From a virus (lineage: Duplodnaviria; Heunggongvirae; Uroviricota; Caudoviricetes): a DNA stretch of 6,105 bases. Below the pieces are notes generated by a model. The model did not search any database. It was not told the origin of the DNA and saw only the letters and a list, made by a program, of their open reading frames with translations. The stretch is from IMG/VR virus record IMGVR_UViG_2529292872_000016; one strand, 5' to 3'. A program made the position numbers and the translations under genes. Shown one piece after another: positions 3,161 through 4,293 of the stretch. Numbering within the stretch: position 1 is the stretch's first letter; every line of letters begins with the position of its first letter.

Positions 3161-3182
3161 AAAAAACCCGCTCAGAGGCGGG
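3161..3182 (-). terminator. Intrinsic terminator downstream of the CPBP protease gene (minus strand)
   Basis: Minus-strand RNA: CCCGC-CUCUGA-GCGGG (plus 3167-3182; 5-bp all-G/C stem) followed by UUUUUU (plus-strand A6 at 3161-3166); about 140 nt past the CDS stop at 3324. Confidence 0.55.
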
Positions 3183-3323
3183 GTCAAGCTATGCGGCGAA
3201 ATAACCACTCTTAACAGCATACCTGATTTTTTACGTACGTAAATGCTTTGCCGTGCATATTTTTCATGCAAATGTCACGTCCTGCTATTTTTCAGTCTTA
3301 TAAATTTAAAACCATAGAAAAAA

Positions 3324-4142
3324 TCAATTATGTTTTAAAAATGGATAGGTAAAGAATAACAAGTGACACAGATTCAAACCAAAATGGAAAAGGGTGGCAA
3401 CCCACAAACGCCCACTCCACATCCATGACAATCCATACACAACACCAGATAACGTGGCAAATAATACAAGTAAAGCACCACCTGAATAGTGATAAAAACC
3501 AAACAACAAAGCCGCCACAATTAATGCAACCAATGGAGACGTTACTTCTGATAGCCGTGATTGAATATACCCTCTAAATAATGATTCCTCTGCCAGAGAC
3601 ACAAAAAACAAATTAGCCAATATAAACTCTGGCAACCACTCAGGAAAATGAATCTCTGGCTTTAATCCACCAAAAAAAACAGCCAAAAACAGGATAAGAG
3701 GAACAGAGAGCGACAGAGCCCCCCACTTCCACAAAGACACTTCTGATTTTACTTCTTTTTTAAACAAAGAAGATGTACACAGGACTAACAAAAATGGCAC
3801 CAGCGCTTTATCAAAATTAAAATACATTGTATAGGGAGTACTTTGAGGGCCAACAGTAACAGAATTTAGCACTACAGGATTGTGAAACCCTGGCCATAGA
3901 TGGAAAAATAATGCTATGGCTGATAAAACTATGCCAACTTCATATATAGATTTAGCCCAGGCGTTATATTTCCAGTTGAACTTCAAAATAATAAAAAAAA
4001 CGATTGTAGCAACAAAAAATAACACCGACCAATCAATAATATCATTAAGCACAGCCAGGACAACAGACACCGTCAACAATGAAAAAGCCACTACCTTATG
4101 CCAACTGAGAGTTGACAGTGACAGTACTAACACAATCCACAT
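3324..4142 (-). CDS. CPBP-family (CAAX protease / Abi, PF02517-type) polytopic intramembrane metalloprotease, 272 aa
   Basis: Track ORF 3324..4148. I place the start at ATG 4142-4140 because a perfect AAGGAG (plus 4148-4153) lies 5 nt upstream; the track start at 4148 is a GTG inside that SD. The protein is highly hydrophobic with multiple predicted TM helices and all three CPBP motifs in the canonical order: EExxxR (LAEESLFRGY), FxxxH (LFGFYHY) and HxxxN (HFGLNLCH). The gene is very AT-rich. Confidence 0.8.
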   Translation of the reverse strand: MWIVLVLSLSTLSWHKVVAFSLLTVSVVLAVLNDIIDWSVLFFVATIVFFIILKFNWKYNAWAKSIYEVGIVLSAIALFFHLWPGFHNPVVLNSVTVGPQSTPYTMYFNFDKALVPFLLVLCTSSLFKKEVKSEVSLWKWGALSLSVPLILFLAVFFGGLKPEIHFPEWLPEFILANLFFVSLAEESLFRGYIQSRLSEVTSPLVALIVAALLFGFYHYSGGALLVLFATLSGVVYGLSWMWSGRLWVATLFHFGLNLCHLLFFTYPFLKHN

Positions 4143-4173
4143 AAGCACTCCTTTTATTTAATGATGAAGATTG

Positions 4174-4202
4174 ATTATCAATATTTTCAATTCACCAGGC
4201 AA
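4174..4202 (-). promoter_or_regulatory. Candidate sigma70 promoter in the Q-to-CPBP intergenic region (either the late promoter pR' equivalent or the cargo gene's own promoter)
   Basis: Minus strand TTGCCT (-35; plus 4197-4202), 17-bp spacer, GATAAT (-10; plus 4174-4179), about 31 nt upstream of the CPBP ATG. It lies in the 145-bp AT-rich gap after the Q stop, the position where lambdoid phages carry pR'. Confidence 0.3.
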
Positions 4203-4293
4203 CATTTTATCTACCTTCCACAATACATGACCATCAAAAAATAAACATGTTAATTATAAACACAGAAAACATAACCCTCATCACTATATATCC

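Follow-up and report, generated by a model that had tools for sequence, protein, structure and literature searches.

In a 6,105-nucleotide stretch of Caudoviricetes DNA (IMG/VR record IMGVR_UViG_2529292872_000016; the window, throughout), the gene for a late antiterminator, Q, is followed on the minus strand by a gene for a CPBP/Rce1-like membrane protease. We conclude, with a probability of about 0.75, that this CPBP gene is a low-GC moron that has its own promoters and occupies a variable slot between Q and the true pR' promoter on which Q acts. Judged from its sequence, the window is the late-regulatory region of a lambdoid prophage resembling Sp4/CP-933M of Escherichia coli O157:H7; all window features described below lie on the minus strand. 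Positions 4000-4674 show 100% identity to O157:H7, and 3130-5000 are identical to strain EDL933, with the differences from that strain clustered in psrA, a TrmB-like open reading frame (ORF), and the DUF968 gene. The block consisting of Q, spacer, and CPBP gene was found with 99-100% identity in 572 complete E. coli genomes of several serotypes, and a 94%-identical variant of it keeps an intact CPBP ORF. In the Sakai Sp4 nomenclature, Q is ECs1084, the CPBP gene ECs1085, and psrA ECs1087; our search of the literature on ECs1084-1086 returned nothing except the identity of psrA with ECs1087.

Transcription start sites were taken from published Cappable-seq data for EDL933 (PMC10469882, Table S5) and mapped to the window through the EDL933 sequence. 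These data cover eight conditions, comprising exponential and stationary phase and LB, M9, acid, and salt, all without inducer (no mitomycin C). The principal promoter of the CPBP gene, designated P2, is constitutive; it has a -35 hexamer TTGCCT (4202-4197), a 17-nt spacer, and a -10 hexamer GATAAT (4179-4174), and a start at EDL933 position 1264544 (window 4167), 7 nt after GATAAT, was recorded in all eight uninduced conditions with a signal of about 8-109. The promoter that the initial annotation had placed at 4174-4202 is therefore real. A minor promoter, P1, has a perfect -10 hexamer (TATAAT, 4258-4253) and a poor -35, with a start at 1264465 (window 4246), likewise 7 nt after the hexamer, in one of the eight conditions, stationary phase with salt. 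Given that P1 combines a perfect TATAAT with the lack of a -35 and fires only in stationary phase with salt, the data suggest that it is an activator-dependent or alternative-sigma promoter. Its -10 is abutted by direct repeats, TATGTT-TTC-TGTGTT (4246-4280), which read TATGTT-TCC-TATGTT in strain C8. By its letters P2 is unremarkable, matching the consensus at 9 of 12 positions within an AT-rich spacer in which three overlapping promoter-like sites were called, and the consensus scan returned 16 promoter-like sites where 8.4 were expected. The presence of the CPBP start site in eight of eight uninduced conditions means that the gene is transcribed in uninduced lysogens, as the initial annotation had suggested, and supports the view that it is on in the dormant prophage from an ordinary promoter of its own.

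P2 lies 92-120 nt after the Q stop codon, and the short terminated leader of a Q-dependent cassette is not found there: its 25-nt leader runs straight into the Shine-Dalgarno sequence and ATG of a 272-codon gene, no terminator precedes that gene, and the terminator is 985 nt downstream. The spacer that carries P2 has no counterpart in loci with related Q proteins, and the spacer after Q is not conserved among such phages. The repeat that we assign to Q (see below) is not near P1 or P2; its sole copy in the window is at 3230-3243, even when three mismatches are allowed. A scan of positions 4700-2650 for hairpins followed by a U-tract, together with RNA folding, identified CCCGC-CTCTGA-GCGGG plus T6 at 3182-3161 (stem 3182-3167, U-tract 3166-3161) as the first canonical terminator after Q. 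In agreement with the initial annotation, this terminator is past the CPBP gene, and the same-strand scan found no hairpin with a U-tract between the Q stop (4294) and the CPBP ATG (4142). Within the CPBP gene the only candidates, one at about 4086 and one at 3633-3616, are weak and non-canonical, and between the CPBP stop (3324) and the promoter unit described next the scan returned none, leaving the gene without a terminator of its own. The CPBP mRNA most likely ends at 3182-3161, the probable tR'.

The segment 3243-3161 is the best candidate for a combined pR', Q-binding element (QBE), and tR', because of its linkage to Q, the co-variation of its repeat with a helix of Q, and a K-12 start site at its predicted +1. 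The initial annotation had missed both the P1 start at 4246 and this promoter-like unit just upstream of the terminator. Q would bind a perfect 14-bp inverted repeat, TTTACGTACGTAAA (3230-3243), which overlies the -35 region, is followed by an A-tract, and was assigned through co-variation and identity with the K-12 prophage DLP12. The putative -10, TATGCT (3216-3221), is recognized as a conserved hexamer and from the K-12 start site. The predicted 49-nt leader begins with an A at 3209, forms a 5' hairpin at 3208-3193, and ends with the terminator at 3182-3161; it folds into two hairpins with a free energy of -14.9 kcal/mol. Across related elements, an inverted repeat situated between -35 and -20 is followed by an A-rich tract in most sequences, then by about 7 variable bases and a hexamer that conforms to TAnnnT in 51 and to nAnnnT in 59 of 60 distinct sequences but is otherwise variable. 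A near-invariant GTTAAG/AGTGGTTAyTTCGCC... with a small 5' hairpin comes next, and an intrinsic terminator lies about 45-50 nt from the predicted +1. Leader and terminator are near-invariant across Q alleles, and an analysis of RNA covariation in the leader found no compensatory pairs, the sequences being too conserved.

Related loci were collected by scanning IMG/VR with a 14-mer of the leader, GTTAAGAGTGGTTA, which yielded 120 loci and 104 sequences with a true element. A PF06530 Q gene is upstream on the same strand in 86 of the 86 loci with enough upstream DNA. The distance from the Q stop to the element is 3, 27, 34, 38, or 44 nt in 13 loci, in which there is consequently no other room for pR', and 624-3041 nt in the others, where the gap holds unrelated cargo that is frequently on the opposite strand. 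At least 10 unrelated types of cargo occupy the slot, including NmpC/Lc porin, lipoproteins, ORF6N, an NYN nuclease, an HNH nuclease (PADLOC PDC-M68A), KwaB with a membrane partner (a Kiwa-like pair), and an OLD-like ATPase with a C5 methyltransferase. At the position of the CPBP gene, phiP27 carries a GIY-YIG gene and Stx2a_1447 two reverse-strand genes, and in Stx2_EH2201 no more than 38 nt separate the Q stop from the start of homology. In comparisons with these three Stx2 phages, homology to the window begins 35-55 nt upstream of the terminator at 3182, not after Q, and lysis genes lie downstream of the terminator in the relatives. On this comparative evidence the CPBP gene would lie upstream of pR', not between pR' and tR'. 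As a separate observation, in IMG/VR loci L010-L129 the slot between Q and pR' resembles a hotspot where defence genes and morons collect. In two further loci, L005 and L006, positions 3400-3515 hold a strong promoter (TTGACC-18-TATATT), two hairpins, and a terminator directly after Q and before an ORF6N pseudogene; these are distinct from the repeat unit, which lies further downstream in the same loci.

The repeat follows the identity of Q. The window Q gene (QuuD type; ORF 4294-4674, likely start ATG 4665) encodes a PF06530 protein (E 8.7e-52) that shares 85% amino acid identity with K-12 QuuD and distantly matches the solved structure of phage 21 Q. Ten Q clusters map to repeat types without exception, whatever lies between Q and the element. 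Within the cluster of the window itself, the repeat is TTTACGTACGTAAA with the helix SDG[L/Y]IGKRL, TTTACGATCGTAAA with SDTCIGKRL, and TTTACAATCGTAAA with SDCWVGRLL, the central repeat bases tracking the residues at the start of the recognition helix. In the other clusters, GCGTACGC is paired with SDGTIRKEL, GCGGTCCGC with [SD]EK.IRIE (three clusters), GCGGGCCGC with SDEKRVRIVI, GGAATTCC with SHT..LKRL (two clusters), and TGTTATAACA with SLNQVVIRL. The co-varying residues align with the second helix of the helix-turn-helix (HTH) motif, which reads the QBE in phage 21 Q structures (PMC6606751). Binding of Q to the repeat at 3230-3243 is thus our reading of co-varying sequences. We found no literature description of the generality of the slot, of the inverted-repeat element, or of its co-variation with the Q helix, although one may exist.

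Three anchors connect the unit with transcription data or genetics. In K-12, DLP12 has the order quuD, nmpC (on the opposite strand), repeat unit, and essD, with the unit 169 nt before essD, and its repeat TTTACGTACGTAAA, TATGCT -10, leader, and terminator are identical to those of the window. DLP12 Q reportedly controls the lysis cassette, according to work attributed to Rueggeberg and colleagues from 2013 and 2015. The two K-12 genome versions are presumably offset by 777 nt, which is consistent with the essD coordinates. With this offset, the predicted DLP12 +1 (NC_000913.3 577229, U00096.2 576452) coincides with a listed Cappable-seq start (Ettwiller et al. 2016), exactly 7 nt downstream of the hexamer homologous to the window TATGCT. 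The same prophage (L210, about 4359) also has a strong Cappable-seq start (score 90) at U00096.2 576081 (+), beside the nmpC start, which points toward the pR' unit and essD from 370 nt upstream of the unit and may correspond to a reported RpoE-dependent promoter of the DLP12 lysis cassette. The second anchor is phage 1720a-02/phi-stx2dact, which is of the cargo-less type and in which deletion of Q with retention of the element abolished the production of both Stx2 and phage (PMC6328086); a text search of the literature with the leader sequence had a primer in this paper as its sole match. The third is another EDL933 locus (L212, 1904162-1905138) with a DUF1133-family antiterminator, where a start at 1904741, 25 nt after the antiterminator gene, was recorded in eight of eight conditions and is followed by a 77-nt leader and a terminator homologous in position to window 3167-3182; the TrmB-like/psr/tRNA module that comes next is the same as in the window. 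This cassette shows a pR'-tR' pair in the same data set and identifies the position 3167-3182 as that of tR'. At the terminator, then, a single downstream module has been joined to two unrelated antiterminator families, PF06530 and DUF1133.

Several points weigh against placing pR' at this unit and the CPBP gene upstream of it. The QBE of phage 21, whose Q is the sole relative with a solved structure, consists of two direct TGAGCA repeats 8 bp apart, whereas the element here is a 9-14 bp inverted repeat near -28, and it is the direct repeats at P1 (TATGTT-N3-TGTGTT) that loosely resemble the phage 21 layout. No clear sigma-dependent pause hexamer (nAnnnT) was found between +1 and +15, where the sequence AGTGGTTAyTTCGCC is invariant. 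Among the EDL933 Cappable-seq rows listed, there is no start at window 3209 (EDL933 1265502), a look-up weakened by a downstream pseudogene and by the ease with which a 49-nt RNA is lost from such libraries. The K-12 start is exact in position but weak in signal (score 1.7, near the cut-off; enrichment 4.8), as expected given that the RNA is only roughly 50 nt long. The co-variation between Q and repeat is partly confounded by physical linkage, and the loci were chosen for carrying the conserved leader. In addition, many IMG/VR loci are near-duplicates from near-identical E. coli prophages, with about 10 Q clusters and 60 distinct elements, so that independent observations number in the tens and not 86.

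An improbable alternative is that 3243-3161 is an independent small RNA (sRNA) gene or the operator of another regulator, such as the TrmB-like protein, and that the real pR' is elsewhere. Conservation of the leader exceeds what a simple leader needs, an inverted repeat is typical of the operator of a dimeric repressor, no clear sigma-dependent pause element was found, and prophage pR' regions do yield regulatory sRNAs (PMC7547250, PMC4104026). Yet it is Q that the repeat follows in its variation, not the TrmB-like gene, which is nearly invariant; the 13 loci with the Q stop 3-44 nt from the unit leave no other place for pR'; and one such cargo-less phage has Q-dependent late expression (PMC6328086). 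The two roles are also compatible: in Stx phages the constitutive pR' transcript yields the sRNA StxS (PMC7547250), which is both a pR' leader and an sRNA. Identity of the leader with the sRNA HnrS was considered and rejected, given that neither length (66 nt) nor description fits. Rfam has no family over the leader or the spacer between Q and the CPBP gene, its only matches in the window being three tRNAs and STnc100.

The CPBP gene itself (ORF, Pfam, and RefSeq annotation) has a Shine-Dalgarno sequence, AAGGAG (4153-4148), at a good distance from its ATG (4142), and a stop codon at 3326-3324, and encodes 272 amino acids. The protein matches PF02517 (E 1.4e-19; 70.6 bits against a cut-off of 22.4), retains the motifs EExxxR/FxxxH/HxxxN as EESLFR185, FGFYH214, and HFGLN253, and has multiple hydrophobic segments; by profile, catalytic motifs, and polytopic character it is predicted to be a CPBP/Rce1-like intramembrane glutamic endopeptidase. 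The region has a GC content of 36-39%, compared with about 50% in its flanks. The CPBP gene therefore has a promoter of its own that is active in the prophage, deviant GC content, and a place in a slot whose content varies among relatives (empty in 13 loci), all features of a moron, although the terminator of its own that a moron would have is lacking. We consider it very improbable that the region is a decayed remnant devoid of regulatory logic, in which P2 is a fortuitous promoter in AT-rich DNA and the CPBP gene a functionless passenger. Sp4/CP-933M does contain insertion sequence elements and pseudogenes, its lysis region is inverted, a frameshift disrupts the TrmB-like ORF, and AT-rich DNA makes promoter-like sites, as the twofold excess in the consensus scan illustrates. 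Decay is nevertheless difficult to reconcile with the conservation of the Q-spacer-CPBP block across the 572 genomes and several serotypes, with the intact ORF in the 94%-identical variant, with intact catalytic motifs and good spacing of the ribosome-binding site, or with a start site present in every condition.

Least probable is the mechanism put forward in the initial annotation, that P2 (or P1) is the Q-modified pR' equivalent and the CPBP gene, in the position of the 6S leader between pR' and tR', is constitutive for that reason: a promoter directly after Q as in lambda, a constitutive start as at pR' of lambda and Stx phages (PMC7547250), a first terminator after the CPBP gene, direct repeats at the P1 TATAAT reminiscent of the phage 21 QBE, and the strong promoter and terminator directly after Q in L005/L006 would fit it, but the window scan found no cognate repeat near P1 or P2, the repeat unit and not the spacer is conserved among close Q proteins, relatives have reverse-strand genes in the same slot that are incompatible with a leader, K-12 Q is split from its unit by the opposite-strand nmpC, and L005/L006 also carry the repeat unit further downstream. 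The comparative evidence instead places the genuine pR'/qut region at the conserved, Q-linked unit 3243-3161, with the CPBP gene upstream of it. Equating P1 with pR' by aligning its TATAAT under the post-Q promoter of L005/L006 was likewise rejected, because of the repeat unit further downstream in those loci and the co-variation. The direct repeats at P1, or TATGTC-AG-TATGTT in locus L004, were also rejected as a QBE, given that the L004 register makes CAGTAT the -10 and that GCGGTCCGC is conserved.

Transcription of pR' is constitutive in lambdoid phages and ends at tR'. With the CPBP gene as a moron upstream of pR', host sigma-70 RNA polymerase in the prophage state would start at P2 (4167) constitutively and at P1 (4246) occasionally, cross the CPBP gene and then the silent Q-binding site and pR', and, unmodified by Q, stop at the first intrinsic terminator, 3182-3161. 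Polymerase started at P2 has no QBE behind it and should be blind to Q. On induction, Q would bind the repeat and load onto polymerase starting at pR' (+1 at about 3209), and the modified polymerase would pass tR' and the terminators beyond it and transcribe psrA, the tRNAs, and the lysis and late genes. Because tR' would insulate the late genes from cargo transcription, the slot upstream of the QBE may be a safe harbour for constitutive cargo.

What the CPBP protein does is addressed only tentatively here. In Gram-positive bacteria, CPBP/Abi proteins are a source of bacteriocin immunity. From this precedent and from the cargo that relatives carry in the same slot, a membrane role that benefits the lysogen (exclusion, defence, or immunity) is the function that we would favour for the CPBP protein, with low confidence. 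PADLOC gave no family match to the protein at E <= 0.1, and the protein belongs to PHROG 13291, which is listed as of unknown function. Homologs with 45-54% identity occur as single genes on the chromosomes of Serratia, Photorhabdus, Xenorhabdus, Proteus, and Enterobacter, and the neighbors of those in Serratia, Photorhabdus, Proteus, and Enterobacter include no consistent toxin or bacteriocin partner.

The remainder of the window was annotated as follows. Upstream of Q are rusA (4655-5026; ORF list and Pfam) and a split DUF968 gene (5039-6086; ORF list and Pfam), the latter present as two overlapping ORFs (145 and 205 amino acids) compared with a single gene of 349 amino acids in O157:H7. About 70 substitutions relative to EDL933 cluster in 5039-6086, which together with the split ORFs indicates a different, possibly broken allele. 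Downstream of the pR' unit, the TrmB-like small ORF (about 3037-2850), which encodes a winged HTH protein, is frameshifted both in the window and in O157:H7 and is intact (65 amino acids) in phiP27, Stx2 phages, and another EDL933 prophage. Another good terminator, GCCTTCAG-N4-CTGAAGGC-T6, lies after this ORF at 2837-2854. The gene for the AraC-like regulator psrA (2703-1990), a prophage regulator of type III secretion, differs from the EDL933 copy at about 25 positions, clustered in 2000-2500, and has its own EDL933 start site at 1265979 in eight of eight conditions. Three tRNA genes (1961-1712) form a cluster of the ileZ-argN-argO type, with CAU, Arg-UCG, and Arg-UCU anticodons; the CAU tRNA is called Met by ARAGORN and annotated as Ile by RefSeq, and a cluster of the same type precedes stx in Stx phages. 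Just downstream of the tRNAs is an Rfam match to STnc100 (1635-1445; 138 bits), which is probably the convergent prophage sRNA/anti-sRNA locus that Tree et al. 2014 reported at the moron site of Sp4 and other lambdoid prophages. The 5' part of a gene for a SASA esterase extends toward the start of the window.

If the CPBP gene is indeed a moron upstream of pR', an ordinary mechanism, a moron with its own promoter, replaces expression from a constitutive pR' leader, and exact coordinates become available for the probable pR', QBE, and tR' of an O157:H7 prophage in which the virulence regulator psrA is also encoded. The usual assumption of annotation pipelines and models, with pR' immediately behind Q and morons beyond pR', would often be wrong for the QuuD family, by up to 3 kb. 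Co-variation of the Q helix with the repeat offers a testable specificity code for the Q proteins of Stx2 phages, one that matters for matching each toxin operon to the Q that drives it in poly-lysogens, and the Q-pR' slot seems to be a reservoir of lysogen-expressed cargo, including defence genes, that is open to systematic mining. The full generalization, that in QuuD-type phages Q and its promoter are uncoupled by a cargo slot, linked by an inverted-repeat code, and insulated by tR', with CPBP as an exclusion, immunity, or defence factor, appears to us to have slightly less than an even chance of being correct.

The arrangement proposed here shares with lambda and Stx phages a Q gene, a promoter with a Q-binding site, a short terminated leader, late genes beyond it, and an expectation of activity in the lysogen. 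It differs in that a cargo gene of 1 kb, itself outside the leader, separates pR' from Q, in that the leader is 49 nt compared with 194 nt in lambda and 258 nt in Stx phages, and in that Q is of the PF06530 family. Phage 21 Q (PDB 6P18/6JNX) belongs to the same Pfam family, and the phage 21 system likewise has its element between -35 and -10 of pR' (PMC6606751) and its specificity in the second HTH helix, but the protein is only distantly related to the window Q and the two differ in length (162 amino acids versus 123-127 for the window Q). Like lambdoid morons (Juhala et al. 2000, cited in PMC4104026), the CPBP gene has its own promoter, deviant composition, a presence/absence pattern, and expression in the prophage, whereas the literature places morons downstream of pR' (PMC4104026) and the CPBP slot is upstream, with no terminator belonging to the CPBP gene. 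DLP12 resembles the window in having an orthologous Q, cargo between Q and the unit, and an identical unit. Its cargo is a porin gene that is on the opposite strand and interrupted by IS5, whereas the same-strand CPBP gene of the window must read into tR'; the DLP12 unit is also close to the holin gene (169 nt), whereas the TrmB-like ORF, psrA, three tRNAs, the sRNA region, and nanS-p intervene in the window. That cargo can separate a QuuD-type Q from its promoter is already implied by the layout of DLP12.

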